From a virus (Duplodnaviria > Heunggongvirae > Uroviricota > Caudoviricetes): a stretch of 44,708 bases of DNA. The notes below the pieces were generated by a model. That model saw nothing but the letters and a program-made list of their open reading frames with translations, had not been told where the DNA came from and did no database searches. Each line of letters begins with the position of its first letter. The stretch's first letter is position 1. Shown piece by piece: positions 2,323-23,039 of this stretch. A program made the translations under genes and the position numbers. The stretch spans positions 1-44,708 of IMG/VR virus record IMGVR_UViG_2541047944_000003. One strand, given 5' to 3'.

Positions 2323-2955
2323 TTATTCAGGCGAGCGAATCTGTTCCGCACAATGCAACAATGCTTCTGTCACTTCCTTAAGCGTTACGGTATCGGCATC
2401 ATCCAGTCCTGCAACTTTTACGTGCCTGACAAACGCCGCGCGAAGTTCGTCAAACGCCACCGCCCGTACATCAGCCAGGAAAGCATCGGTAGCTGGAGTT
2501 TCGCTGTGGTGTAGGGCATCGTTGATAATCATTGCAGCAACACCAGCCTGCCCTGCATCCGTGACCGACACATGCTCAAGAGTTACGGCCATTGCGTGTT
2601 TCAGCCCGGCGTTCTCTGCCACCAGCGCCGCGAGATTAGTCTCAAGCTCTGAAATTCGGCACGTGGCATCAATATTTGTGTCCTCCAAGCACTTAATTTC
2701 ACCAAGCAGCTCCAGTGCAACCTTTGGGTTGAAAGCTGCGATATAACGAGCATTGTTCTCTGCGTTTTTCTGTTCGTCGAATCCAGGCCAGTCGACAATA
2801 TCTCCGTGATGATTATCTCCTGGTGTGTGCACGGCGTACGTGCCGTATTTGCCCGGCGAAATAAATGCGACCCATTCGCCTTGTGTTGCCTTTTCTGCCG
2901 CCTCACGCAGTGCCTGATAGTCAATTTCGCTCACTGGTTGCCTCCTTTGCGCCAC
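2323..2955 (-). CDS. Ea22-like family prophage protein (210 aa)
   Basis: Central coiled-coil segment [17 protein letters not shown] resembles Ea22-like proteins (from memory). Confidence 0.5.
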
Positions 2956-3131
2956 ATCGCATTCAGATATTTGTTTTTATTCACTGAAGGAAAAGAATTT
3001 CTCTTAAGTAATTCCTCTCTCGATGGCATTGGCTTTACGCGTTGACGAATAATCATTTCCGCCGGAAGAATGCCGGGATTGTATGCAAGTCCTCTCATGG
3101 TAAATTCCTCAGTCATTACTGATAGCGCCAT
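2931..3131 (-). CDS. hypothetical small protein (66 aa)
   Basis: ORF in leftward operon, overlapping neighbours. Confidence 0.3.
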
Positions 3132-3405
3132 AGCGTGAGCGGTAATTACGCAGGCGCGGGTCGATATATTCAGGGAATTTGTCTATTGTCGCTTTTCGCA
3201 ACGGTCTCATTGCTGTTTCGTTTGTTCGGTCCTTCTCCTGTTTTAGCGCGAGTTGTATATCGCGTCGGTACATCCGTTCTGCTTTTGTTTCTGGTGGCAG
3301 AGTAAGAAATGCATCGAAATTGTTTTTGATATTTTCCAGCACCTCCAATACGGAATTGCCGGAACAGCGGCGCGCGTCGTCCGCACCATACAGAGGCGCT
3401 GGCAT
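3109..3405 (-). CDS. hypothetical protein (98 aa)
   Basis: ORF with AGGAGA ribosome-binding site upstream of ATG at 3405. Confidence 0.45.
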
Positions 3406-3934: not shown

Positions 3935-4642
3935 TTATGCCGCCTGTTTTAGTTCGTTAACTCTGATGTTCATTACCTGAACGCATTTAGCCTGCGCCTC
4001 CTCGTTGCCAGCCATTAATTGCCAGTCATGCTGATAACGCGCGATGAGTTTTTTCTTGTCAGTTTCTGTTGACGCATAATCGCTGAAGTCTTTCAGGATT
4101 TGTTCGCAGTCAACCGATGGAGATTTCTGGTTGGTATTTTCTGGTGATGGTTTGTTATCTGATGCTGGGATTGCCCATCCCGGCAGCGATGGAGGGAGCC
4201 AGTAAAATCCTGTTCCATCCTTCAGTTTTGCCCTGTGCCATCCCTGCTTTTTATCGATAGATGTTTGTGCGAAACCTTCCTCAAGGTTATACAGATACCG
4301 ACCGATTCCCCACTGAACGGCAGCGCGCTTCATTGCACCGGAACGACCACCTTTGACGGCTTCTACCTGCGTGTTTTCAGCAGCATCCCATTTGGTTACC
4401 CATTCGGAATCAATCTTTATTGATATGCCGCATTCAACGCCGCCGTTGTTGGGAATATCGCGGTATTCATTGCGCCATCCTGCTTTGCCGCAAACATCGT
4501 CCAGGCGTTTCATGATTGCCCGGTTCGTGACATAAGCCAGCACCATAGCCCACACTTTGCCATCGCGTGTTTTACCGCTTTGCTGTATTCGCCATTCGAT
4601 ATCTTCAGGGCTGAATGGCTCATTGAATTTATTCAAATCCAT
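3935..4642 (-). CDS. single-strand annealing recombinase (Rad52/Erf superfamily)
   Basis: Motif KGGRSGAMKRAAVQWGIGRYLY typical of Rad52-like annealing proteins; directly adjacent to ssb as a recombination module. Confidence 0.55.
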   Translation of the reverse strand: MDLNKFNEPFSPEDIEWRIQQSGKTRDGKVWAMVLAYVTNRAIMKRLDDVCGKAGWRNEYRDIPNNGGVECGISIKIDSEWVTKWDAAENTQVEAVKGGRSGAMKRAAVQWGIGRYLYNLEEGFAQTSIDKKQGWHRAKLKDGTGFYWLPPSLPGWAIPASDNKPSPENTNQKSPSVDCEQILKDFSDYASTETDKKKLIARYQHDWQLMAGNEEAQAKCVQVMNIRVNELKQAA

Positions 4643-5707: not shown

Positions 5708-6289
5708 ATGAACAACTCATGGTGGCAGGAACTAATGCATTTTTTCCTGCAAGGAATGACACTTAAACAGTTGATTCATATGCTAATCATCCTGATCATA
5801 TTGATTATTGTTATGCCGGTAAGCGTAAAAGAATGGATAAACCTGCATAATCCAGAAATCCTTCCTCATTACTGGATGTATTACATCCTGTTGTTTTGCG
5901 TTAGCTATGTGCTTAACGGCGTTGTTAATTCCGCTTATCACGCTGTGACTGAAAGAATTGAGGTATTCGCTGCTCAGAAGCGCAAATCTAAAGAAGAAAA
6001 ATATGTGCAAGATTTGTTTGATTCGTTAACTCTTGGAGAAAGAGCGTATTTGGCATTCGCTGTAGCCGCTAATAACCAGCTACAAACGGAAAAGGGCGCT
6101 CATGAATCAATTTCATTGCTCAAAAAAGGACTCCTCGTTCGAAGGCCTCCTGCTGTTGGATATCCTGATACCGACCGTTTCGTTATCCCTGAAAGCTATA
6201 GACATGAGTGCTACATTAGGTTTGCCGGGAAGGCAGACAGCCTTATGGATGAACTTATCGCTCAGGATAAGCATGGCAAAAACAAGTAA
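5708..6289 (+). CDS. sieB: superinfection exclusion protein B-like membrane protein
   Basis: 193-aa protein with two strongly hydrophobic helices; rightward gene embedded in the leftward early operon between N and cIII, as sieB is in lambda. Confidence 0.55.
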   Translation: MNNSWWQELMHFFLQGMTLKQLIHMLIILIILIIVMPVSVKEWINLHNPEILPHYWMYYILLFCVSYVLNGVVNSAYHAVTERIEVFAAQKRKSKEEKYVQDLFDSLTLGERAYLAFAVAANNQLQTEKGAHESISLLKKGLLVRRPPAVGYPDTDRFVIPESYRHECYIRFAGKADSLMDELIAQDKHGKNK

Positions 6290-6305: not shown

Positions 6306-6578
6306 TCATCTCGCCGTCAGTTGTTTTGATTTCCGGTAGCCTGCCGCGTAAAGAGCTACGTTCGGAAGACAAGTTGAACCTTCATATTTTCTGGTCAACG
6401 TTGTCAGAGTTATCACTTCTGCTCTCATTGCTGGTTTGCGCTTGCATTGCAAGACCACTCGTGAAGGGGTTGGCCTGTGTAGCTTGTCGGAGCTGATCGC
6501 CTCCTGACTTTGCAGATTTGCGCGACGAGCTCTACGGCGAGAAGCTGCGGTGCCTTTAAATTCTGTTTTTCTGGACAT
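6306..6578 (-). CDS. N: N-like transcription antitermination protein
   Basis: Arginine-rich motif TAASRRRARRANLQ near the N-terminus; GGAGGA RBS before ATG at 6578; sits between nutL and the early-left genes. Confidence 0.6.
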   Translation of the reverse strand: MSRKTEFKGTAASRRRARRANLQSQEAISSDKLHRPTPSRVVLQCKRKPAMRAEVITLTTLTRKYEGSTCLPNVALYAAGYRKSKQLTAR

Positions 6579-6676
6579 GGATTCCTCCCGAATAAACTTT
6601 GGCGATGCAATCTCGAAGCTCCTCCTGAGACGGTTGCTTCGGCATTGCATCCCACAGCTTATGTGGTTGGGTGATC

Positions 6677-7014: not shown

Positions 7015-7767
7015 TTATGCTGCAAGTCTCTTAACCCAAGTCTCTCTTTTGGAGAATGGTAGAACTTGGCTTGATTCATGGAAGAGTAAGGAGAGTTGTT
7101 GCATTTGATCACCAATTGCTTCGCTGTCTATAACAACAAATCTGTTGTTATACTCCTCACTTGAAGCTTTAAGATCAATTAGTTTCCCAAGCAATGAGTA
7201 AGCACTATTCCAGCTTCCTCCGTGTTTCACGCTTGATGTAAAAACGTATTTAGGTATGTCGGTTTTTATTGTTACAGGGACGGTAATTTGATGTCCACTC
7301 AAGCCATATACGTTTTCACGAAGAGAAAGTGCGTCTCTAAGCTCTGTGTGATATAGATAATCAATAACCATACTTTCAAACTTTTCAGCTTGAACTGGCT
7401 GATACCAGTCTAACGACAAAGTTGATGCGAGTATACCAGCTCTAATTATGTTCGATGTAATCGCACCGACATCCTTTTCTGTTGCCCAAGCAATGATTTC
7501 TCCTCGAGCATTGAGTTCTGCGCCTTCTTTAAGCAGTAATTGTCGTATCTCATCAAGTCGTTTTTTGGTAAGCGAGATCCCTCTTGCCTCCATATTCATT
7601 AAGGCATCGCATCTGTCACTAACTAAATACCTACCATTGACTTCACGGATAAAGGCACCGACATGCTCTCCATCATCACAGTAAGTGAATGGACTGATAA
7701 TTCTCAAGGTCTTGCCTATTGGATGGCATTCGAAACCTAGTTGTGAGATCACTGTTGAGCACATCAT
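7015..7767 (-). CDS. hypothetical protein (250 aa), immunity-region cargo
   Basis: ORF downstream of cI, 4-nt overlap with upstream ORF, AT-rich codon usage unlike backbone; no recognisable motif. Confidence 0.6.
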   Translation of the reverse strand: MMCSTVISQLGFECHPIGKTLRIISPFTYCDDGEHVGAFIREVNGRYLVSDRCDALMNMEARGISLTKKRLDEIRQLLLKEGAELNARGEIIAWATEKDVGAITSNIIRAGILASTLSLDWYQPVQAEKFESMVIDYLYHTELRDALSLRENVYGLSGHQITVPVTIKTDIPKYVFTSSVKHGGSWNSAYSLLGKLIDLKASSEEYNNRFVVIDSEAIGDQMQQLSLLFHESSQVLPFSKRETWVKRLAA

Positions 7768-8321
7768 ATTCCAAACCCCATTTGCCCCGACTCATCTTCA
7801 AGCGGTAAAGGTATTCTCCCAGAGTAAGTTATGTTCAGATGTTTACAGAAGTAATTCCAATACCCTACCAGGTCATCTGGGTTTATGTCATCTTCGATTG
7901 GAAACGCTATTCTATCACTATAGTATCCAGCTTCTTCATAGTATACATGGTAGTGAGCACCGTAAATGATATCTTGGTACTTCGGATGATCGACCTTGTA
8001 ACTATTCGTGTGTTTGTCAAAGTGATAGGTATCTACCGCGAAAACCCTCTTGTTATGATAGAAAGCAATAATATTTATTTTAGGGTAAGAAATCGGGTCA
8101 TCAGGTTCTGAATCCTGATCTGGTTTCCATTTCAGTTCAAACTTTAGCCCTTGTATAGGTATACAATCCTCATCCAAGGGGATGATATGGGCTTGTAGCC
8201 ACATATCAGAGCGACTTGGTTTCTGTTTCCATTTAACGCCAGAAAAGTTAACTATTTTTTTACAATAAAGTACTTTATCAACTTCTACTTGGCTTGGCTG
8301 ATAATCATCTATTTTTGCCAA
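7764..8321 (-). CDS. hypothetical Tyr/His/Asp-rich protein (185 aa), immunity-region cargo
   Basis: ORF 40 bp downstream of cI stop, co-oriented with cI; no recognisable motif. Confidence 0.6.
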   Translation of the reverse strand: MAKIDDYQPSQVEVDKVLYCKKIVNFSGVKWKQKPSRSDMWLQAHIIPLDEDCIPIQGLKFELKWKPDQDSEPDDPISYPKINIIAFYHNKRVFAVDTYHFDKHTNSYKVDHPKYQDIIYGAHYHVYYEEAGYYSDRIAFPIEDDINPDDLVGYWNYFCKHLNITYSGRIPLPLEDESGQMGFGI

Positions 8322-8360: not shown

Positions 8361-9020
8361 TCACCCAAACGTCTCTTCAGGCCATTGGCTGGCGATAACT
8401 TTCCCCACAACGGAACAACTCTCATTGCATGGGATCATTGGGTATTGTGGGTTTAGTGGCTGTAGAAACACCTGACCGCTATCCCTGATCAGTTTCTTGA
8501 AGGTAAATTCATCACCACCAAGTCTGGCTATGCAGAAATCGCCGGGCTCAACAGCTTGCTCAGGGTCAACCAGAATTAACATCCCGTCAGGAAAGCTGGG
8601 TTTGGAACCTGTTGGTGCGGTCATTGAGTTACCTTCAACCTCAAGCCAGAATGCAGAGTCACTGGCTTTTTTGGTTGTGCTTACCAATCTCTCCGCATCG
8701 CCTTTGGTAAAGGTTCTGAGTTCTGGAGAGAACATCCCAGCCTGAACATGAGAAAAAACAGGGTACTCATATTGTTTTTTAACTGGGGCCGATGAGTATT
8801 CGCCAACAGGTGAAAATGTCCCGTCGTGGTTGAATGATATGTTATCAATACCAAGGTATTTAAACACCACACCAATATCACTAAGAGATGGATGACGAGA
8901 TCCGCGCAACCAGTGTCCAATCCCACCCTGCGTCATACCTAGCTCTTCGGCTAACTTCTCTTGAGTTATGCCGAGCTCTTTCATTCTGGATCTAGCCAGT
9001 TCATACCATTTCATTTTCAT
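8361..9020 (-). CDS. cI: CI-type prophage repressor (HTH DNA-binding domain plus S24 peptidase domain)
   Basis: C-terminal domain matches lambda CI as remembered ([19 protein letters not shown]...[12 protein letters not shown]); N-terminal HTH differs; TAAGGA RBS before ATG at 9020. Confidence 0.9.
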
Positions 9021-9131
9021 GTCCTTATTATTACGCTCTGTACTGGAACCATCCATGCACAATGTGTATTTTTATTTGTATTCGTAAAGTACATATTGTA
9101 TTTTTTTATTCGTGTTTACTATGGAGGGCAT
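9021..9131. promoter_or_regulatory. OR region with divergent promoters for cI and cro
   Basis: AT-rich 111-bp divergent intergenic region containing operator-like site at 9084-9102. Confidence 0.6.
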
Positions 9132-11547: not shown

Positions 11548-13194
11548 ATGTGTGAAACCTATATTTTTAGGTTCCGTGACCTAGGAAAAAGTGAAGGATT
11601 TACCATCGAACAACACAATAACATTGCTCGCCAAGAAGGGAATGTTTGGTGGGGGTGGTGGGCTAAATCTGGTGAGCGTTTCCCATCACTGGAACTAAAA
11701 AATGCGGCAGAAAAAAATAAACAAATATATTTTTTTGATTCAGGGCGGCTTAAATTTTATACCGCTGTATTAAAGGATACTTGCTCGTCAGCTTTAGGGG
11801 ATATAAAAAAACAATCTCCTAAGGATGGTCGCAGAACCCCAGCATATTATAATGAGAATGAGTTGCTGGGATGGTTAAATGTTTCTGAGATTACAGAAAT
11901 TGATGCTTGTGATATCCTCAGAAAATTCACATATATTCCATTGGATGCATTGTTTGCAGGTAATAAAGATTTAGATGAGCAACTTTTCAACAAAATTGTC
12001 TTTTCTTCAGCTGAATTAAAAAAACAAGATAGAACTATTTGGAAGATTAGACCTGCAAATGATAAAGATTTACAGCATGAGTCATTAGCATCTCATTATG
12101 TTCCTTATAATTTCAGTCGGAAGTATAGCCAAAAAAAAGGGGAGTTTATAATTTGGCTTTCGGATATTCATTTTGATGGCGGAAATGGGAAACATGCATT
12201 TCCGACACAAGATAATGATCAGCTAAAATGTTTATCCTCTCGAGTGGTGGAGTTGGCTGGAAAATATAATAATGGGAGTAAATGTGCTGGGTTGGCTATT
12301 TCAGGTGATTTGACGTGGCAGTCACAGAAAGAGGGATTCAAGCAAGCTTTGAATTTTATCAAAGATGTTAGTTCTTCTCTTAGCCTGACAACGGATGATA
12401 TAATTATTTGTCCTGGGAATCACGATGTAGGTCTGGTTTCTAAAGATGAGTACTTTAAAATCGTGGGTAAGCCTGTAACGGATAAACCATGGAAAATTCT
12501 GGCGGAAAACTACCATAGAGAAAGTAAACTTAATTATATAAAATTTTATCGAGATTTTTTTCAAAGGGAACCTGAAGAAAATTTATCACAAGGAAGGAAA
12601 TTTTTACTAGGTGGCCATAAAGTTGTTGAAATAGCCGCATTGAACTCATGCGTATTACAACAAGTAAAAGATTCATTTTTGGGCATGGGATTTGTCGGTG
12701 AGCAACAACTCAGTGATGTTGCAAAATCTATGGGATGGATGAATGATAGCGGAGGTGATATACTCAAAAAGAAAGGTGTTATAAGAATTGCTATGCTTCA
12801 CCATCACCTAACTTCTATTAATGAAGTTGAAGATGCCTATCTTGATTCAAGATATAGTGTAACATTAGATGCAGAGCGATTATTACGTTGGGTAGTAAGG
12901 CATAAAGTTGATTATATTCTGCATGGTCATATGCACAGAAGTAGTTCTATTACAATAACAAAAAAACTATCTCCGTTAGAACCAGTGACGGATTCAAATC
13001 CTGAACATACATTCCAAATTGTTTCTTTGGGAAGTTCAGGAGTTGTTAGTTCGGAATTGCCAAGTCAGGATTGTGCTAACTATGCATGCGTACTGGATTT
13101 TTCTGGCGAAAAGCTAACTTTTAATTTTTTCAAGCTTGATAAACAGAGCGGAGAAAAAGTGGCGGCTACTTATATTGTTGAAGGTTTATTATGA
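11548..13194 (+). CDS. calcineurin-like metallophosphoesterase with unknown ~190-aa N-terminal domain (548 aa)
   Basis: Ordered motifs SDIHFDGG (DxH), ISGDLTW (GD), CPGNHD (GNHD), MLHHH, LHGHMH (GHxH); GAGGA RBS; AT-rich. Confidence 0.7.
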   Translation: MCETYIFRFRDLGKSEGFTIEQHNNIARQEGNVWWGWWAKSGERFPSLELKNAAEKNKQIYFFDSGRLKFYTAVLKDTCSSALGDIKKQSPKDGRRTPAYYNENELLGWLNVSEITEIDACDILRKFTYIPLDALFAGNKDLDEQLFNKIVFSSAELKKQDRTIWKIRPANDKDLQHESLASHYVPYNFSRKYSQKKGEFIIWLSDIHFDGGNGKHAFPTQDNDQLKCLSSRVVELAGKYNNGSKCAGLAISGDLTWQSQKEGFKQALNFIKDVSSSLSLTTDDIIICPGNHDVGLVSKDEYFKIVGKPVTDKPWKILAENYHRESKLNYIKFYRDFFQREPEENLSQGRKFLLGGHKVVEIAALNSCVLQQVKDSFLGMGFVGEQQLSDVAKSMGWMNDSGGDILKKKGVIRIAMLHHHLTSINEVEDAYLDSRYSVTLDAERLLRWVVRHKVDYILHGHMHRSSSITITKKLSPLEPVTDSNPEHTFQIVSLGSSGVVSSELPSQDCANYACVLDFSGEKLTFNFFKLDKQSGEKVAATYIVEGLL

Positions 13195-14027
13195 AATTAC
13201 TTATTACTGATTTGGATAATACACTGTACGATTGGGTGAGTTTTTACTCCCAGTCATTTAGTGCCATGGCAGAGCAATTATCTAAGGATATTGATGTGCC
13301 TTTGGATACGCTCCTGTCAGAATATAAAACCATTCATCAGAAGTTTGGTAACTCAGAAAAACCATTTGCTACTTTAGAGCTACCATCTGTGATATCTTAC
13401 TTTGGAACTAATGATAAAACGATTTTGCAGGAAAAACTTACTAATGTTTTTCAGGCGTTTAGCACAAAACGTAACCAGACATTAATGTTGTATCCTACTG
13501 TAAAAGAAACGCTGGAATTATTGAAGAAACGGGGGGTAAAAATTGTAGGGCATACTGAAGCTTTGGAGTTTAATTCTTTATATCGTCTGAATAAGCTTGG
13601 TATAATTGATTTTTTTGATCATCTTTATACATTGGAAGATATTCATAATATCCACCCGAATCCCAAAAATGCGAAAAAAATACCTGTGAAGGATGACTTT
13701 GTAATTAGATTGTCCTGCGCTGAGTCAAAGCCAAACCCTAAATTGCTTGAGCACATATGTTCTTTTGAAGGAGTTAGTGTTGAAGATGCGGTATACATTG
13801 GCGATTCTATAACTAAAGATATGTCCATGGCTAAAGCTGTGGGGGTTACTGCTGTTTGGGCTAATTATGGGCGACAGTTTTCACCTGAATTGTGGAAAGT
13901 TTTAGTGAAAATCACACACTGGAAAGATGCAGATGTGGAGAGGGAGGAACAACTTAGAAAAGCATTCTCCAATGTTAGACCTGATTATGTTGTTAATAGT
14001 TTTTCAGAGCTGCTGAATTTGAAATGA
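13191..14027 (+). CDS. HAD-superfamily phosphatase/hydrolase (278 aa)
   Basis: Motif I LITDLDNT (DxDxT), motif IV IGDSITKD; ATGA start/stop overlap with upstream gene. Confidence 0.7.
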   Translation: MKLLITDLDNTLYDWVSFYSQSFSAMAEQLSKDIDVPLDTLLSEYKTIHQKFGNSEKPFATLELPSVISYFGTNDKTILQEKLTNVFQAFSTKRNQTLMLYPTVKETLELLKKRGVKIVGHTEALEFNSLYRLNKLGIIDFFDHLYTLEDIHNIHPNPKNAKKIPVKDDFVIRLSCAESKPNPKLLEHICSFEGVSVEDAVYIGDSITKDMSMAKAVGVTAVWANYGRQFSPELWKVLVKITHWKDADVEREEQLRKAFSNVRPDYVVNSFSELLNLK

Positions 14028-15072: not shown

Positions 15073-15242
15073 TGGCTACACCGCTTATTCGTGTCATGAA
15101 CGGACACATCTACAGAGTACCAAATCGTCGTAAGCGTAAACCGGAGCTGAAGCCTTCCGAAATACCAACACTGCTCGGATATACCGCCAGCCTGGTTGAT
15201 AAAAAATGGTTGCGACTGGCAGCAAGGAGGAATCATGGCTGA
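15072..15242 (+). CDS. ninE: NinE-like small protein (56 aa)
   Basis: Small basic ORF ([25 protein letters not shown]...) translated by hand between ybcN and ybcO; stop overlaps ybcO start. Confidence 0.4.
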   Translation: MATPLIRVMNGHIYRVPNRRKRKPELKPSEIPTLLGYTASLVDKKWLRLAARRNHG

Positions 15243-15525
15243 TTTGAGAAAAGCAGCGCGTAGTCGGGAATGCCAGGTAAGAATCCCTGGCGTATGTAAT
15301 GGCAATCCTGAAACGTCAGTACTGGCACATATCCGGCTGGCTGGATTGTGCGGCACCGGTATCAAACCGCCAGACCTGATTGCCACCATTGCATGTTCTG
15401 CCTGCCACGACGAAATCGACCGTCGCACGCATTTTGTTGACGCTGGATATGCAAAAGAATGTGCGCTGGAAGGTATGGCGAGAACACAGGTTATCTGGCT
15501 GAAAGAGGGGGTAATTAAGGCGTGA
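15235..15525 (+). CDS. ybcO: DUF1364-family protein YbcO
   Basis: [37 protein letters not shown]... with four Cys; AGGAGG RBS. Confidence 0.65.
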
Positions 15526-15884
15526 ATACTTACTGCATCACACTACCCTGGCCGCCGAGCAATAATCGCTATTACCGCCATAATCGCGGACGCACGCATA
15601 TCAGCGCAGAGGGGCAGGCATACCGCGATAATGTCGCCCGAATCATTAAAAACGCAATGCTGGATATCGGCCTGGCTATTCCTGTGAAAATCAGCATTGA
15701 GTGCCACATGCCGGATCGCCGTCGCCGTGACCTTGATAATCTGCAAAAGGCCGCTTTTGACGCACTCACCAAAGCAGGTTTCTGGCTGGATGATGCTCAG
15801 GTCGTTGATTACCGCGTTGTGAAGATGCCCGTTACCAAAGGTGGGAAGCTAGAGCTGACTATCACTGAACTGGGAGATGAATGA
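15522..15884 (+). CDS. rusA: Holliday junction resolvase RusA
   Basis: 120-aa product matching DLP12 RusA as remembered ([23 protein letters not shown]...). Confidence 0.85.
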
Positions 15885-16021
15885 TGTTTGAGTCTTATAT
15901 GGCAGAACGTCTTCGCCGCCGCTGGGTGCGCCTGCGCTTATATCGTTTTCCTGGTTCTGTTTTGACCGATTACCGGATACTGAAGAATTACGCCAAAACA
16001 CTGAAAGGAGCATGTGTATGA
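15881..16021 (+). CDS. ylcG: YlcG-like small protein (46 aa)
   Basis: [41 protein letters not shown]..., ATGA overlap with rusA stop. Confidence 0.6.
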
Positions 16022-16106
16022 AGTCAGAGATAACAATCGACTAATACTGTTTTGTTGATTTTTGCTTGTAATTGGCGTTCTGGCCTAATTTTTGTGGAGT
16101 AAGTTG

Positions 16107-16490
16107 ATGCGTGATGTTCAGATGGTTCTTGAGCGTTGGGGGGCGTGGGCAGCTAATAATCATGAAGATGTGACCTGGTCGTCCATTGCTGCCGGTTTTA
16201 AGGGATTAATTCCTTCAAAAGTAAAATCTCGCCCGCAATGTTGTGACGATGACGCGATGATCATTTGCGGGTGCATGGCCCGTCTGAAAAAGAACAACAG
16301 CGATTTACACGATTTATTAGTAGATTATTATGTATGTGGTATGACATTCATGTCACTGGCAAGTAAGCATTGCTGCTCGGATGGTTATATCGGGAAAAGG
16401 TTACAGAAGGCTGAGGGCATAATTGAAGGGATGTTAATGGCATTAGATATCCGGTTAGATATGGATATCGTTGCTAATAATTCTAATTGA
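16107..16490 (+). CDS. Q: late-gene antiterminator Q (QuuD-like)
   Basis: [25 protein letters not shown]... with Cys cluster [12 protein letters not shown], matching DLP12 QuuD as remembered. Confidence 0.8.
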
Positions 16491-16514
16491 TATGCAATTA
16501 TTTACTAAAAGTTA

Positions 16515-16541
16515 TTAAAAATGGGGCGTGGAAACGCCCCC
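16515..16541 (-). terminator. intrinsic terminator candidate for the porin gene
   Basis: Hairpin GGGGCG-tggaaa-CGCCCC with a T-run on the minus strand. Confidence 0.45.
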
Positions 16542-16627
16542 AAAGTAAAGGGTAATATATAACAGAAGGTTTATATAGTAAGAAGCAAGGTAGTGCTTCT
16601 AAAGGAAGTGGCTTGAGGGCTCCACTT

Positions 16628-16668
16628 ATATGTTGCGGAGGCAAAGCCTCCCGCAACATATCTTTTTC
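16628..16668 (+). terminator. strong intrinsic terminator downstream of Q (tR'-like candidate)
   Basis: Long hairpin ATATGTTGCGGAGG-caaag-CCTCCCGCAACATAT followed by CTTTTT. Confidence 0.6.
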
Positions 16669-16678
16669 GTAAGTCAGA

Positions 16679-17761
16679 TTAGAACTGATAAACCAGACCT
16701 ACAGCGACGATGTCGTCGGTATCAATACCAGCTGTTTTGGTAAACTTACTATCGTCAATTAAGTTGATTTTGTAATCAACAAAAGTGGACATGTTTTTAT
16801 TAAAGTAGTAAGTAGCACCGACATCGACATACTTGACTAAGTCTCGGTCACCATGAACACCAAGGTCTTTACCTTTTGACTGAAGGTAAGCAACAGATGG
16901 GCGCAGACCGAAGTCAAACTGATATTGTGCTACTGCTTCAAAGTTTTGTGCTTTGTTTGCAATATGGTTATTACCAAAAACGGTCATATTCTGAGTTTCA
17001 GAATATGTGGTAGCCAGATAGATATTGTTCGCATCATATTTCAGGCCTGCAGCCCATACTTCCGCATTTTTGCCGGAGGCATTGAATTTGCTCTTACCAT
17101 AGGCGACCTGACCGTCAGTGCGATCTGATTTAGCATAGGTTGCACCCACGCCGAATCCTTCATACTCATAAGTAGTGGAGAAACCGAAACCATCACCATT
17201 GGCTTCAGTTACGTCAGTGCGGTCATTTTTACCCTGATACTGAGCAGCAAAGTTCAGGCCATCGACCAGACCAAAGAAGTCGTTGTTACGATAAGTTGCA
17301 ACACCAGTAGTGCGACCAGTCATGAACACATCTGTTTGGGTCCAGGTATCACCACCGAATTCTGGCAGAACGTCAGTCCACGCACCGATGTCGTATGCTA
17401 CACCGTAGTTACGGCCGTAATCGATTGAGCCGTAATCACCAAATTTCAGGCCTGCAAATGCAAGACGGGTTTTGTCTTTGGAAGAACCTTGAGATTCAGC
17501 ACGGTTGCCTTTGAATTCATATTCCCACTGACCGAAACCAGTCAGTTGATCGTTGATTTGGGTTTCACCTTTGAAGCCAAGACGGGCATAAGTAGTATCA
17601 CCATCATCTGCATCATTAGAGGAGAAGTAGTGCTTGGCATTAACTTTCCCGTATAGATCCAGCTTGTTACTGTCTTTATTATAAATTTCAGCTGCCTGAG
17701 CAGACATCGCCATCAGTACTGATGCAGCTACAGCAGAAATTGCCACTGTTAATTTTTTCAT
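16679..17761 (-). CDS. nmpC: OmpC-family outer membrane porin (NmpC/Lc-like)
   Basis: Signal peptide [39 protein letters not shown] start and C-terminal VGLVYQF typical of enterobacterial general porins; intact, no IS interruption. Confidence 0.85.
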
Positions 17762-18187
17762 TGTACGCCCTTTTTTTGAACTATTATTAAAAAATGATGT
17801 CACTGCGCGATAAATATTCATCTAATCAATGTGATTATTTCAAGATGTAAGTTTTAGTTTCTCATTTAATTTGTGAAGTAGATCTCTATTTTTATCTGAA
17901 CCTTTTCTATCTAATCCTATTCATGGCTCTTGTTTGAACGAAAATAAATCTATTAGCTAATTTATATTAATGGCACTTATTTATAAGCACTCTATAATTC
18001 TTTAGCTTAATTTAAACAAACTAAAAATAACATCGGAAATTATTCATTGGTTATTTGTTGAAGTTTTCTTATGTATTTGTGGTGGTGTTTTGAACACTCG
18101 GTGGCATTCTCACAAATATCATTTAGTAGTTTACGTACGTAAAAAATTGGTTATGCTGTTAAGAGTGGTTACTTCGTCACACAGCTT

Positions 18188-18220
18188 AAACCCGCCGTCG
18201 AGCGGGTTTTTCCATTTTTT
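18188..18220 (+). terminator. intrinsic terminator candidate upstream of the lysis cassette
   Basis: Hairpin AAACCCGC-cgtcga-GCGGGTTT followed by TTCCATTTTTT. Confidence 0.5.
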
Positions 18221-18349
18221 GAGTCTCGATATTAGCTGATAACCCAATACCTGAGTTATTCACTGACTCCGAATCTGTTACGTTTCTGCCTTTATTGCGA
18301 TACGTAGTATCCCCTTAATTTACACCCGCTTTGTCTGCGAGGTGGGGTT

Positions 18350-18565
18350 ATGAAATCCATGGATAAGTTAACAACGGGTGTCGCCTATGGCACCTCAGCA
18401 GGTAGTGCCGGGTACTGGTTTTTACAGTTGCTCGATAAAGTCACGCCCTCACAGTGGGCGGCAATAGGTGTGCTGGGTAGTCTGGTATTTGGCTTGCTGA
18501 CGTATCTGACAAACCTTTATTTCAAGATTAAAGAAGATAAGCGTAAGGCTGCGAGAGGTGAATAA
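18350..18565 (+). CDS. S: class II holin (pinholin, S21-type)
   Basis: 71-aa product with two TM segments and dual-start MKSMDK motif, matching phage 21 S as remembered. Confidence 0.85.
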
Positions 18566-19062
18566 TGTCGCCATCATTACGCAAGGCTATTGCTGCTGCT
18601 ATTGGTGGTGGGGCTGTTGCCATAGCGTCTGTGCTCATCACTGGTCCGAGTGGTGACGATGGCCTGGAAGGTGTCAGCTACATACCATACAAAGATATTG
18701 TTGGTGTATGGACTGTATGTCACGGGCATACAGGAAAAGACATCATGCTCGGTAAAACGTATACCAAAGCAGAATGCAAAGCACTCTTGAATAAAGACCT
18801 TGCCACTGTCGCCAGACAAATTAACCCGTACATCACAGTCGATATACCGGAAACAACGCGCGGCGCTCTTTACTCATTCGTTTACAACGTGGGCGCTGGC
18901 AATTTCAGAACATCGACGCTTCTTCGCAAAATAAACCAGGGCGATATCAAAGGCGCATGTGATCAGCTACGGCGCTGGACATACGCTGGCGGTAAGCAAT
19001 GGAAAGGGCTGATGACTCGCCGTGAGATTGAGCGTGAAGTCTGTTTGTGGGGGCAACAATGA
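18565..19062 (+). CDS. R: SAR endolysin (lysozyme with N-terminal signal-anchor-release domain)
   Basis: Gly/Ala-rich hydrophobic N-terminus ([18 protein letters not shown]) then lysozyme-like domain; follows holin with 1-nt overlap. Confidence 0.8.
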
Positions 19063-19502
19063 GCAGAGTAACCGCGATTATCTCCGCTCTGGTTATCTGC
19101 ATCATCGTCTGCCTGTCATGGGCTGTTAATCATTACCGTGATAACGCCATCGCCTACAAAGAGCAGCGCGACAAAGCCGCATCTACTATCGCTGACATGC
19201 AGAAGCGTCAACGTGATGTAGCAGAACTCGACGCCAGATACACAAAGGAGCTTGCTGATGCTAACGCGACTATCGAAAGTCTACGTGCTGATGTTTCTGC
19301 TGGTCGTAAGTGGCTGCACGTCAAAGCAGTCTGTCCGGACAAGCATAAAACCACCGCCGCCTCCGGCGTGGATGATGCTTCCAGCCCCAGACTTACTGAC
19401 ACCGCTCAACGGGATTATTTCGTTCTCAGAGAGCGCATCGAAACCATAACTAACCAATTGAATGGCCTGCAAGAGTATGTGAGATCACAGTGCTCATATT
19501 AG
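19059..19502 (+). CDS. Rz: i-spanin Rz
   Basis: N-terminal TM helix then coiled-coil; ATGA overlap with endolysin stop. Confidence 0.75.
19252..19449 (+). CDS. Rz1: o-spanin Rz1 (lipoprotein) embedded in Rz in the +1 frame
   Basis: Lipobox LVVSGC followed by proline-rich [10 protein letters not shown], as in lambda Rz1. Confidence 0.7.
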
Positions 19503-19576
19503 AAAAGTCGTATCATAAGATTTTTGTATATGGATGCATTATGTCTGTAAGCGACTCGTCAGAACCGTATTGATAT

Positions 19577-21148
19577 TTACTGAGAGCTCAGATCAACTTT
19601 CCAGGGCAACAGATCGCGTACCCGGTTTGCCGGCCAGTCCTGGATATGTTCAATGACGTAACGCAGCCACTTTTCTGGCTCCACATTGTTCAGACGGCAT
19701 GTGCCGATCAGCGAGTACAACACCGCCGCATGTTCACCACCGCTGTCGGAACCCGCGAACATCCAGTTTTTCCGGCCTACGGCCACTCCCCGTAAGGCGT
19801 TCTCTGCGATGTTGTTGTCGATTTCCACCCAGCCATTACTGCAGTACACGTTCAGTGCATCCCACTGTTTCAGCAGGTATGCGAACGCTTTTGCCGTATC
19901 TGAGTGACGCGACAGTGTTTTCATCTGTTGCTGTATCCAGTCATACAGTGACTGCATCAGTGGCGCGGCTCTGGCTTTTCTTGCCGCCAGACGCTGTTCT
20001 GCTGAACAGCCCCGGACCTCTGCCTCGATGGCATACAGTTCACCGATACGCTGCAGGGCTTCCGTGGTGATGTAGGTGGACGCTCTTGCATGCACATCGT
20101 GGATTTTTCTCCGGGCATGAGCCATACACGCGGCTTCCGTTATTCTGCCGGATTCGTATAACGCCCGGTAACCACCGTAAGCATCGGCCTGAAGCACACC
20201 GCTGTAACCGGCCAGGTGATTTTGTGGATGGATACCTTTCCGGTCCGGACTGTACGCGAACCAGACCGCCGGGGGCATCTGTGAACCGGCGTTACGGTCA
20301 TCACGGACGTAGACCCACAGCCGGGCTGTCCGGGTTTTACCGCTGCCCGGCTCCTGGACCGGGACGGGGATATCATCAGCATGGACTTTACCGGGCATCA
20401 GCACATACTGGCGCAGGACGTCATACAGCGGCTCCAGCAGTTCAGCAACAGCACCTGTCCAGCGCCCCAGTGTGGCACGGCTCAGCTCCACTCCCTGACG
20501 ACGGTATATTTCTGACTGGCGGTATAACGGCAGATGGTCTGCATATTTCCCGGTGACAACATGGGCCAGAAGCCCCGCTCCGGCATAACTGCGTGCAATG
20601 GGTTTTGAAGGTACTGGTGCCTGCACGATATGGTCGCACCGGCAACAGGCCTGTTTCGGACGTTGTGTTTCGATAACCTTAAAGGCGCTGCTGATAAGCT
20701 CCAGTTGCTCTGACACATCACATCCCAGAGAACTGAGTTCACCACCACAGGCAGGACAGCATTCCTCTTCCGGCCGGATAACCCGGGTTTCACGGGGAAG
20801 TGAGGCCGGTAACGGTTTACGGGCTGAAGACTGGCGCAGGGCGGATGGCAGTACCGGGTCATATTGCTCACCCAGCGTTTCCGCCATTTCTTCCTGAAGT
20901 GCGCTGATTCGCTCCTGTGCTTCCTGTATCTGCCGTTCGGTTTTTGCACGAAGTTTTTCTGAGCTTTTACCGAACTGCATACGTTGCAGTTTCGCAACCA
21001 GCGCCTTCAGCCGGTTGATTTCGGAAGCATAAGCCGCCACCCGCTGTGAGAGCAGGCGGTTGTATTCAGCCATCTGGCGGATGGTGTCCTGTTGCGTCTG
21101 CAACAGTGCCCGCAGGCGGGCGTTCTCATGAGCAAGTGAGGTGTCCAT
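19577..21148 (-). CDS. tnpC: IS66-family transposase TnpC (523 aa)
   Basis: Coiled-coil N-terminus, Cys-rich zinc-ribbon region and DDE-type core typical of IS66 transposases. Confidence 0.85.
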
Positions 21149-21167
21149 ATCCTCACTTTACAACGGG

Positions 21168-21515
21168 TTATATGCGGATTCCAGCGCGTTCCGTTCGTTT
21201 CGGGTGCTTCCAGTTGATACCTTCAAGAAGCATGGATAACTGAGCCGGAGTAAGGTGCACCTTGCCGTCACGGGTGACTGGCCAGACGAAGCGGCCCCGC
21301 TCCAGGCGTTTGGTGAAGAGGCACAGTCCGTCACTGTCAGCCCACAACACTTTTATCTGGTCACCCCGGCGTCCGCGGAAGATGAACAGGTGTCCGGAGA
21401 ACGGGTCATCCTTCAGGACGTTCTGAACTTTTGATGCCAGGCCGTTAAAGCCATTTCGCATATCGGTGATACCTGCAACCAGCCAGATACGCGAACCTGC
21501 AGGGAGAGATATCAT
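21168..21515 (-). CDS. tnpB: IS66-family accessory protein TnpB (Orf2)
   Basis: 115-aa product with GITDMRNGFNGLA...IFRGRRGDQIKVLW typical of IS66 Orf2. Confidence 0.8.
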   Translation of the reverse strand: MISLPAGSRIWLVAGITDMRNGFNGLASKVQNVLKDDPFSGHLFIFRGRRGDQIKVLWADSDGLCLFTKRLERGRFVWPVTRDGKVHLTPAQLSMLLEGINWKHPKRTERAGIRI

Positions 21516-22192
21516 CAGTGGCTGCTCCCTTTTATTTCGCGGATAAGTGTCTGTAATAACGCCGGCGTCAGTTTACCTTTAAGCCTGAGAGTTCCGGCCG
21601 GCAGAACCAGCTCACAACACAGACTGTCGGACGGTGTATTTATCTGCTCTGGTTCCTGTGCGGGGGCCGGGATTTTATTATCCGGCTCCGGCGTTAACGT
21701 CACGGGAAGCAGTGCCGGCATATTTTTTCCGGAAGGCAGCAGGCCACCTTTCCGGTATTGATGACGCCAGTTGAAGAGCAGGTTATCGTTGATTCCGTTT
21801 TCCCGGGCGATCTGCGCCACACAGGCTCCGGGCTGCAGTGACTGCTCCACTAAGGCGATTTTAAACTCATAAGGGAAGTTGGGCCGCCGGGGACGTTTTT
21901 TTACCACGGGGGCTTCGGATATAACGGTGCTTTCAGGACGTACGACTGGTACCGTGGAAAATTGTCCGTAAAGGCAGGCATCAAGTTCCTGCTCCGACAT
22001 GCCTGCGGGCAAAGGCCACGAAAGGCCAGCTCTCCGAAAGCGCACGAACATACTACAAACTGTTGATTTTGGTACACCCAGGCGACGCCCGGCCACAACC
22101 CGGGGTAAATGTTCTTCAAAGTGAAGACGTAAAGCTTCAGTGATCCAGGTCCGGTGTTTCATACGATAGTGTCCATTAAAAATGATGGACAT
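21515..22192 (-). CDS. tnpA: IS66-family accessory protein TnpA (Orf1) with extended N-terminal HTH-like region
   Basis: C-terminal half carries IS66 Orf1-like KRPRRPNFPYEFKIALVEQS segment; true start uncertain. Confidence 0.65.
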   Translation of the reverse strand: MSIIFNGHYRMKHRTWITEALRLHFEEHLPRVVAGRRLGVPKSTVCSMFVRFRRAGLSWPLPAGMSEQELDACLYGQFSTVPVVRPESTVISEAPVVKKRPRRPNFPYEFKIALVEQSLQPGACVAQIARENGINDNLLFNWRHQYRKGGLLPSGKNMPALLPVTLTPEPDNKIPAPAQEPEQINTPSDSLCCELVLPAGTLRLKGKLTPALLQTLIREIKGSSH

Positions 22193-22247
22193 TATTTTTG
22201 TAGAGCCGGAGGAAACAGACCAGACGGTTTAAATGAGCCGGTTACTT

Positions 22248-22622
22248 ATGTCTCAATACGCTCACGCCGCTTTAATCGCTTATCATTTGGTTGCTGATAG
22301 CTCAATGCATCCTCGTGATGCATGGGATGCAGCTGTCGCAGAGGTTACGGAAAGCGAATCGTCAAGAAAGAAGATATGCCCACGGGCAACATTTCTCGCC
22401 CTGGCGGATAGCGGTTATCTGAAGAATGTAAAACCACAGCATGGGGAGAGAAAGGGCGGTAAGTTGTATCAAAGGGCAATTGAAGTTGCGAATCTGATTC
22501 TTGATTTACCCGGAATCAGCAAAGCGGAGTTAGTTGATAAAACTTGCTATAAAGACAGGCAAGGGTCTTATGACATTGCTCTAACTCTCGCTCAGCACGG
22601 ATTACTCCAGCATCCTCAATAA
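22248..22622 (+). CDS. hypothetical protein (124 aa); start codon lies inside the IS66 target-site duplication
   Basis: ORF MSQYAHAALIAYHLV...; an in-frame upstream ATG at 22233 lies within the IS terminal repeat. Confidence 0.5.
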   Translation: MSQYAHAALIAYHLVADSSMHPRDAWDAAVAEVTESESSRKKICPRATFLALADSGYLKNVKPQHGERKGGKLYQRAIEVANLILDLPGISKAELVDKTCYKDRQGSYDIALTLAQHGLLQHPQ

Positions 22623-22639
22623 GATATTAAGTGATTTAT

Positions 22640-22663
22640 GGCCTCGCTTTTAGCGGGGCTTTT
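22640..22663 (+). terminator. intrinsic terminator after the 124-aa gene
   Basis: Hairpin GCCTCGC-tttta-GCGGGGC followed by CTTTTT. Confidence 0.5.
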
Positions 22664-23027
22664 TCATATCTGAATCTCACCATGCATATCATCACCTGAC
22701 TGGAACGTCAGGAGAATTCGTTACCGGGATTCGATAAAGGTATTCAAGCCTGACACATTATGCGCTGTATCGTCGCCGTATTCCTGCATTAACCATGACC
22801 GTAGCCCGACGGGGAACTCCTTCTGCGTGAGTGTGCGGGAATAATCAAAAACGATGCACACCGGGTTTTTACCGCGTTTATGGTTCGCGGGGGTGTCCCT
22901 CATGCTCGCCAGTCCTGTGCGGGGGTGGAAGAAACAGGACGTGTATTCAGGTCTGTCAGATATTGAATTCATTGCGAATAAACCAGAACGCCTGCGGGTC
23001 CTTTCCGGCGATCCGACAGGTTACGGG

Positions 23028-23039
23028 GCGGCGACCTCG
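23028..23039. other. cosN cohesive-end site (GGGCGGCGACCT)
   Basis: Matches the lambda 12-nt cohesive end as remembered, preceded by ...CGACAGGTTACG and followed by cosB-like sequence before Nu1. Confidence 0.85.

Follow-up and report, generated by a model that had tools for sequence, protein, structure and literature searches.

Insertion of an ISCro1 element two nucleotides upstream of a DUF6979 gene in a lambda-like prophage

ISCro1, an insertion sequence (IS) of the IS66 family, was first named in Citrobacter rodentium ICC168 and is widespread in the chromosomes and plasmids of Escherichia coli. An ISCro1 of 2,699 base pairs (bp) with an 8-bp target-site duplication has been published (PMC12115866). 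IS copies in prophages are commonplace, and in C. rodentium over half of all IS copies reside on mobile elements (PMC3072379). The sole published measurement of ISCro1 beside a gene concerns afaA in E. coli ST131, where a copy upstream of the gene lowered the transcript by ~2.5 log2-fold and also reduced promoter activity (PMC8764528). Here, an ISCro1 copy is described in the virus record IMGVR_UViG_2541047944_000003 of IMG/VR, a lambda-like prophage of which positions 1 to 44,708 were analysed (hereafter the window). The element lies between the spanin gene Rz and a gene for a 124-amino-acid (aa) protein of the DUF6979 family. It is highly probable that an intact and already known ISCro1 has recently transposed into this lambda-like E. 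coli prophage, and the event is an ordinary transposition of a known kind, fully within the known behaviour of ISCro1.

The ISCro1 copy and its target site

Window positions 19547-22245 are 100% identical over the full length (1-2699) to many ISCro1 copies in E. coli chromosomes and plasmids, which carry the labels 'IS66-like element ISCro1 family transposase', tnpA and tnpB in RefSeq (NCBI PGAP pipeline). All three transposition genes are intact on the minus strand with tnpA and tnpB upstream of tnpC, which is the layout of the IS66 family; the tnpA stop overlaps the tnpB start by 1 nucleotide (nt; TGATG) and a gap of 19 nt separates tnpB from tnpC. The tnpA coordinates are the same as in the RefSeq annotation of the identical copies, and the tnpC open reading frame (ORF) matches zf-IS66, LZ_Tnp_IS66 and DDE_Tnp_IS66_C of Pfam in addition to the transposase domain listed in Table 1. 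The element begins with GTAAGCGACTCG at 19547 and finishes with TGAGCCGGTTAC at 22245. Its terminal inverted repeats, GTAAGCGACTCGTCAGAACCGT and GTAACCGGCTCATTTAAACCGT, are imperfect, 16 of the first 22 positions being equal when the two are read inward, and both start with GTAA, as the terminal repeats of IS66 elements do. In five ISCro1 copies of 100% identity, taken from different E. coli genomes, the terminal bases are exactly those found here, and each of these copies is framed by a perfect 8-bp duplication of its own (TGCTGTGT, ATTTTTCC, CGCTCGTG, AGATATTA and CGTTAAAA). Taken together, the identity, the Pfam domains, the ends and duplications of the five copies and the published length identify the element, as far as its sequence can tell, as a complete ISCro1 that is presumably active. 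The original prediction, made from the letters of the window, had proposed an IS66-family element with imperfect inverted repeats and ends at 19547 and 22245, and agrees with these results on each count.

The element is flanked on both sides by the octamer TTATGTCT, for which a chance match would amount to ~1 in 65,536 by our own arithmetic. The empty site was reconstructed by removing the IS together with one copy of the repeat, and the resulting 800-bp query was compared with the complete E. coli genomes. A natural empty site is present in E. coli O99:H6 CU42ET-1, which is 100% identical to the reconstruction across the 800 bp and has a single TTATGTCT, at 4393-4400 of the extracted locus. 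Aligned to this locus, window positions 15147-19546 match at 99.3% and positions 22246-22956 at 100%, and the two alignments overlap by exactly the 8 bases of TTATGTCT. In the RefSeq annotation of CU42ET-1 the coding sequence of a 'DUF6979 family protein' starts on the ATG within the octamer. The duplication is not due to chance, and the insertion is a simple one. Both the perfect direct repeat and the position of the ATG inside it had been part of the original prediction, which had also named the alignment of the empty site to related prophages as its check, and all of this is upheld by CU42ET-1.

The DUF6979 gene occurs, in one copy each, in 248 of the 5,426 complete E. coli genomes, and the uninterrupted junction between Rz and DUF6979 is likewise found in 248, that is in all carriers of the gene. 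The occupied, IS-bearing junction was found in none of the complete E. coli genomes searched, and an exact 36-mer spanning it had no match in IMG/VR or among the species representatives of GTDB. The duplication is perfect, the IS has not diverged at all from other copies and no other carrier was found; the insertion is thus confined to the source strain and recent, with nothing to indicate age, and the earlier suggestion of a recent event stands. ISCro1 itself is far more common, a copy with at least 80% coverage of the element being present in 1,493 of the same 5,426 genomes, and it is multicopy in many of them (at most in 34 places in one genome). Such abundance, together with the absence of the occupied junction from all other searched collections, could suggest a repeat-induced chimera in which the assembly had put an IS copy into the prophage. 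A mis-join would, however, yield neither a perfect 8-bp duplication, of precisely the length made by this IS, nor flanks that rejoin base-exactly to a natural empty site, and such an artefact is therefore barely conceivable.

The IS landed in the 38-nt spacer between Rz and the DUF6979 gene. The staggered 8-bp target cut corresponds to positions -2 to +6 of this gene, and the ATG is therefore present in both copies of the repeat. The insertion leaves the coding sequence intact, with no difference from the allele of CU42ET-1. By convention, the end adjoining tnpA is the left inverted repeat (IRL), the other being the right one (IRR); it is the IRL end (22245) that abuts the 124-aa gene, now 2 nt upstream of its start codon, while the transposase genes face away from the gene and toward Rz. 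The ATG of the left copy (19541) now heads an ORF of a mere 10 codons (MSVSDSSEPY, followed by a stop) that reads into the IS. The element also separates a Shine-Dalgarno-like GGA (-9 to -7) from the ATG, the native leader being displaced by 2.7 kb. Within the IS end, an ATG at 22233 is in frame with the DUF6979 gene, and the ORF list accordingly gives an ORF of 129 aa; this in-frame start and the 2.7-kb separation of the gene from its native upstream sequence had both been noted at the outset.

The DUF6979 gene and its native position

The product of the gene matches PF22399 with 101.1 bits against a gathering cut-off of 27, residues 1-121 being aligned to model positions 1-127. Its start codon is the same in the annotation of the empty-site genomes and in the isolated phage 4A7, and the homologues begin at the same Met. 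The family comprises 233 cluster representatives at E<=0.001, mostly of 120-140 aa, with conserved positions at Ala25-Trp26 and in a K-x-C-P-R..F..L motif. A confident AlphaFold model of the protein is all-helical (predicted local distance difference test, pLDDT, 95.6). Sequence searches of the PDB gave no significant match, either with the single protein (best E 1.7) or with a 47-sequence profile (best E 0.32), a Foldseek comparison of the model with viral structures returned nothing under E 1, and PADLOC gave no match. PHROG 5039 is a family of unknown function, and a literature search found no mention of DUF6979. The K-x-C-P-R motif was also considered as an MGMT active site, a candidate that was dropped as the MGMT match was non-significant and was not recovered with the profile.

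In phage 4A7 the order porin, holin, endolysin, spanin and DUF6979 is unbroken and lies a few hundred bases from the genome end, and in Salmonella prophages that differ in the type of holin, Q and terminase the DUF6979 gene likewise follows 38 nt after Rz. The two genera have a near-identical spacer between these genes; at -10 to -7 it contains a Shine-Dalgarno-like motif, which reads GGA in E. coli and AGGA in Salmonella. Judged from these genomes, the uninterrupted arrangement is conserved and found in viable phages, and the constant position directly after Rz suggests that DUF6979 is a late-expressed accessory gene. Promoters were searched for by a scan for sigma-70 consensus patterns, which found no promoter-like site on the plus strand upstream of DUF6979 in the empty-site locus. 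This fits co-transcription of the gene with the lysis genes. Of the features that mark a phage 'moron', an accessory gene with expression of its own such as bor, the gene has a downstream terminator (22640-22668), and an own promoter was not seen in the pattern scan. In the lambdoid phages of E. coli and Salmonella, DUF6979 regularly accompanies the lysis cassette as a conserved gene, and it poses a bigger puzzle than the insertion beside it.

Expression across the insertion

The RNA polymerase modified by lambda Q ignores terminators and polarity. By analogy, a Q-modified polymerase starting from the late promoter during lytic growth would read through the lysis genes, then traverse the IS antisense to its tnp genes and continue into DUF6979, cos and the head genes. 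In this phage type the late transcript must already pass the convergent 1.1-kb porin gene, and should therefore cross the IS too. Translation of DUF6979 would then begin in a context roughly as weak as that of the native start. For the duplex with the anti-Shine-Dalgarno sequence (16S 3' end), the predicted energies are -3.1 kcal/mol natively and -4.0 kcal/mol at the junction, both weak in comparison with the starts of the holin (-7.9 kcal/mol) and R (-7.1 kcal/mol); the start region is also predicted to be about equally accessible before and after the insertion. In the lysogen, DUF6979 would probably be as silent as before, or nearly so. The insertion would most likely have a small effect, as a largely neutral hitch-hiker, and the 'rewired' expression of late or cargo genes that the original prediction had envisaged is not favoured.

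An overfilling of the head by the extra 2.7 kb was considered separately and rejected. Relatives carry the integrase ~2.1 kb before the first window position, and their prophage extends ~90 bp past the last one; with the parts outside the window taken from these relatives, the prophage including the IS is estimated at ~47 kb, a length that falls within the lambda packaging range.

Several considerations weigh against a largely neutral insertion. Both the read-through and the small effect are extrapolated from antitermination by lambda Q; promoters that are weak or not of the sigma-70 type would escape the consensus scan, which is a crude one; and the ~47-kb size relies on relatives for the parts of the prophage beyond the window. 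In addition, the conservation of the native spacer from E. coli to Salmonella may point to a signal within it, for instance a weak promoter or a translation-initiation region, whose displacement by 2.7 kb could have a larger effect than the energy estimates would indicate.

In the main alternative, the insertion silences or strongly reduces DUF6979: the native translation-initiation region, and whatever promoter the Rz-proximal spacer may contain, would be cut off from the gene by 2.7 kb of convergently transcribed DNA. The displacement of the conserved GGA/AGGA and of the 38-nt spacer kept from E. coli to Salmonella is consistent with such a loss, as are a tnp transcription that converges on late transcription and the decrease of both transcript and promoter activity caused by ISCro1 upstream of afaA (PMC8764528). 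Reduced expression is nevertheless rather unlikely, if the most serious competitor of a neutral insertion: the scan shows no promoter-like site in the native spacer that could have been lost, the anti-Shine-Dalgarno pairing at the junction is predicted to be at least equal to the native one with similar accessibility, and the Q-modified polymerase would be expected, from lambda biology, to pass terminators and polarity alike.

The opposite outcome, an IS end that activates or remodels the gene, could arise from an outward or hybrid promoter in the lysogen, or from initiation at ATG 22233, which would give the 129-aa protein with the five extra N-terminal residues MSRLL. The in-frame ATG is preceded by a strong GGAGG (-9.3 kcal/mol), and PGAP calls outward-reading ORFs that start within the same IS end in other copies, so that read-out from this end is possible in one frame or more. 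Yet the GGAGG is 19 nt distant from ATG 22233, beyond the usual Shine-Dalgarno spacing of 5-10 nt, the ATG lies within a predicted hairpin (22225-22240), and the outward ORFs of the other copies run in a frame other than that of DUF6979. Neither within the IS end nor over the junction (22100-22260) did the consensus scan find an outward sigma-70-like promoter on the plus strand, so that the mark of IS-driven activation, an outward-reading promoter or -35 box at the end of the element, was not seen in this pattern scan. In a promoter-trap survey, terminal outward promoters were reported for the IS5, IS3 and IS21 families, and IS66 was captured but not listed among them (PMC3281130); a literature search for outward promoters in IS66-family elements found none, and the sole direct test of ISCro1 pointed to reduced expression of the neighbour (PMC8764528). 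Activation or remodelling is accordingly held to be improbable. If true, with the tnpA-side end driving a low-level outward transcript or a 129-aa start, a late phage gene would become lysogen-expressed or N-terminally extended, and the insertion would represent an IS-driven step in the domestication of a prophage gene.

In two other ISCro1 copies (2923-3297 and 2923-3299 of the extracted loci, corresponding to window positions 22169 onward, plus strand), coding sequences run from a GTG in the tnpA-side end into the flank, and are labelled 'transposase' and 'helix-turn-helix transcriptional regulator' in RefSeq (PGAP). This frame can fuse to neighbouring sequence; in the present window it stops at 22297 and is not the frame of DUF6979.

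The event matters little beyond annotation, and is a clean example of very recent ISCro1 transposition. The occupied site and its base-identical empty site make up a possible natural control for the effect of an IS66-family element on a downstream gene and on a phage late operon.

The surrounding prophage and known systems

The left part of the window contains, in order, a Rad52-like recombinase, SSB, SieB, N and a two-gene unit in the rexAB position, followed by a cI-like repressor, O, P, the nin region, Q and a convergent OmpC-like porin. A P21-type holin, a lysozyme and Rz/Rz1 precede ISCro1, after which come DUF6979, a strong terminator-like hairpin, cosN, Nu1, the large terminase and a full-length set of head and tail ORFs. 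The sequence GGGCGGCGACCT is taken to be cosN from the cohesive-end sequence of lambda. The element thus sits between Rz/Rz1 and cos, in the slot of lambda bor as originally predicted, and related phages indeed carry Bor between Rz and Nu1. Coordinates of the insertion and its nearest features are collected in Table 1.

Table 1. Features of the ISCro1 insertion and its flanks, in window coordinates
Feature	Position	Strand	Evidence and remarks
Rz spanin gene	19047..19502	+	Pfam Phage_lysis E 3.6e-40; last lysis gene upstream of the insertion
Rz1, embedded in Rz	~19252-19449	+	lipobox LVVSGC
Target duplication TTATGTCT, left copy	19539..19546		read from sequence
ISCro1	19547..22245	-	tnp genes on minus strand; identity, end check in five copies and published length
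IRR, tnpC-side terminal inverted repeat GTAAGCGACTCGTCAGAACCGT	19547..19568		16/22 positions match the other end
tnpC, DDE transposase, 523 aa	19577..21148	-	Pfam DDE_Tnp_IS66 (PF03050) E 8.7e-103
tnpB, IS66 accessory protein, 115 aa	21168..21515	-	Pfam TnpB_IS66 (PF05717) E 4.7e-40
tnpA, IS66 accessory protein, 225 aa	21515..22192	-	Pfam HTH_Tnp_1 E 8.6e-15
IRL, tnpA-side terminal inverted repeat, reverse complement GTAACCGGCTCATTTAAACCGT	22224..22245		holds in-frame ATG 22233
Target duplication TTATGTCT, right copy	22246..22253		supplies ATG of the DUF6979 gene
DUF6979 gene, 124 aa, intact	22248..22622	+	Pfam PF22399 E 6.4e-29; phrog_5039 E 5.8e-71
Intrinsic terminator-like hairpin, 9 pairs (6 G-C) then T run	22640..22668	+	directly after DUF6979; also in the empty-site locus
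Presumed lambda-type cosN core GGGCGGCGACCT	23026..23037	+	~780 bp downstream of the IS, undisturbed
Nu1	starts 23215		Pfam E 1.3e-95

Other parts of the window contain genes of separate interest. The OmpC-like porin gene (380-aa ORF; 16679-17821, minus strand) lies between Q and the holin, convergent to late transcription, so that the late transcript must cross it antisense; the porin is likewise present in phage 4A7 and in a DLP12-type annotation. On the minus strand (22721-22972), cosN and the DUF6979 terminator enclose a small ORF for which neither Pfam nor PHROG gave a match; the annotations of CU42ET-1, SE15 and phage 4A7 list it as a hypothetical protein of 60 aa. The two genes in the lambda rexAB position (7015-8321, minus strand), between the cI-like repressor (8361-9062) and N (6306-6650), encode proteins of 250 aa (DUF1828) and 185 aa (weak similarity to DUF6978), and the pair matches the PADLOC candidate defence system PDC-M24 (component B, E 4.7e-10; component A, E 4.8e-4). 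In the nin region (11548-14027, plus strand), a 548-aa protein with Pua-like and calcineurin-like phosphoesterase domains is followed by a 278-aa HAD-family hydrolase matching the PADLOC model PDLC03008 'Hydrolase' (E 4e-57), and this pair may constitute defence or counter-defence cargo. A homologue of the superinfection-exclusion protein SieB is encoded in the early-left region (5708-6289, plus strand; Pfam E 2.5e-22). Rfam and tRNA scans of the whole window gave no matches.

Three described systems can be set beside this locus. Lambda bor, which the prophage expresses, is located on the opposite strand. DUF6979 shares with bor the map slot between Rz and cos, and is itself followed by a terminator; it differs in being unrelated in sequence, in lying on the late-gene strand 38 nt after Rz and in having no promoter-like site of its own. 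The afaA locus resembles the present one in that the same IS is found upstream of a gene; there, however, the IS, reported as 2,824 bp, is situated 440 bp upstream in a regulatory region, whereas here it lies 2 nt from the ATG of a gene in a phage late operon (PMC8764528). Compared with ISCro1 elsewhere, the copy has the same 2,699 bp, tnpA-tnpB-tnpC layout, ends and 8-bp duplication, and the difference is the insertion site alone, 2 nt before a lambdoid DUF6979 gene, a position seen in none of the searched collections.

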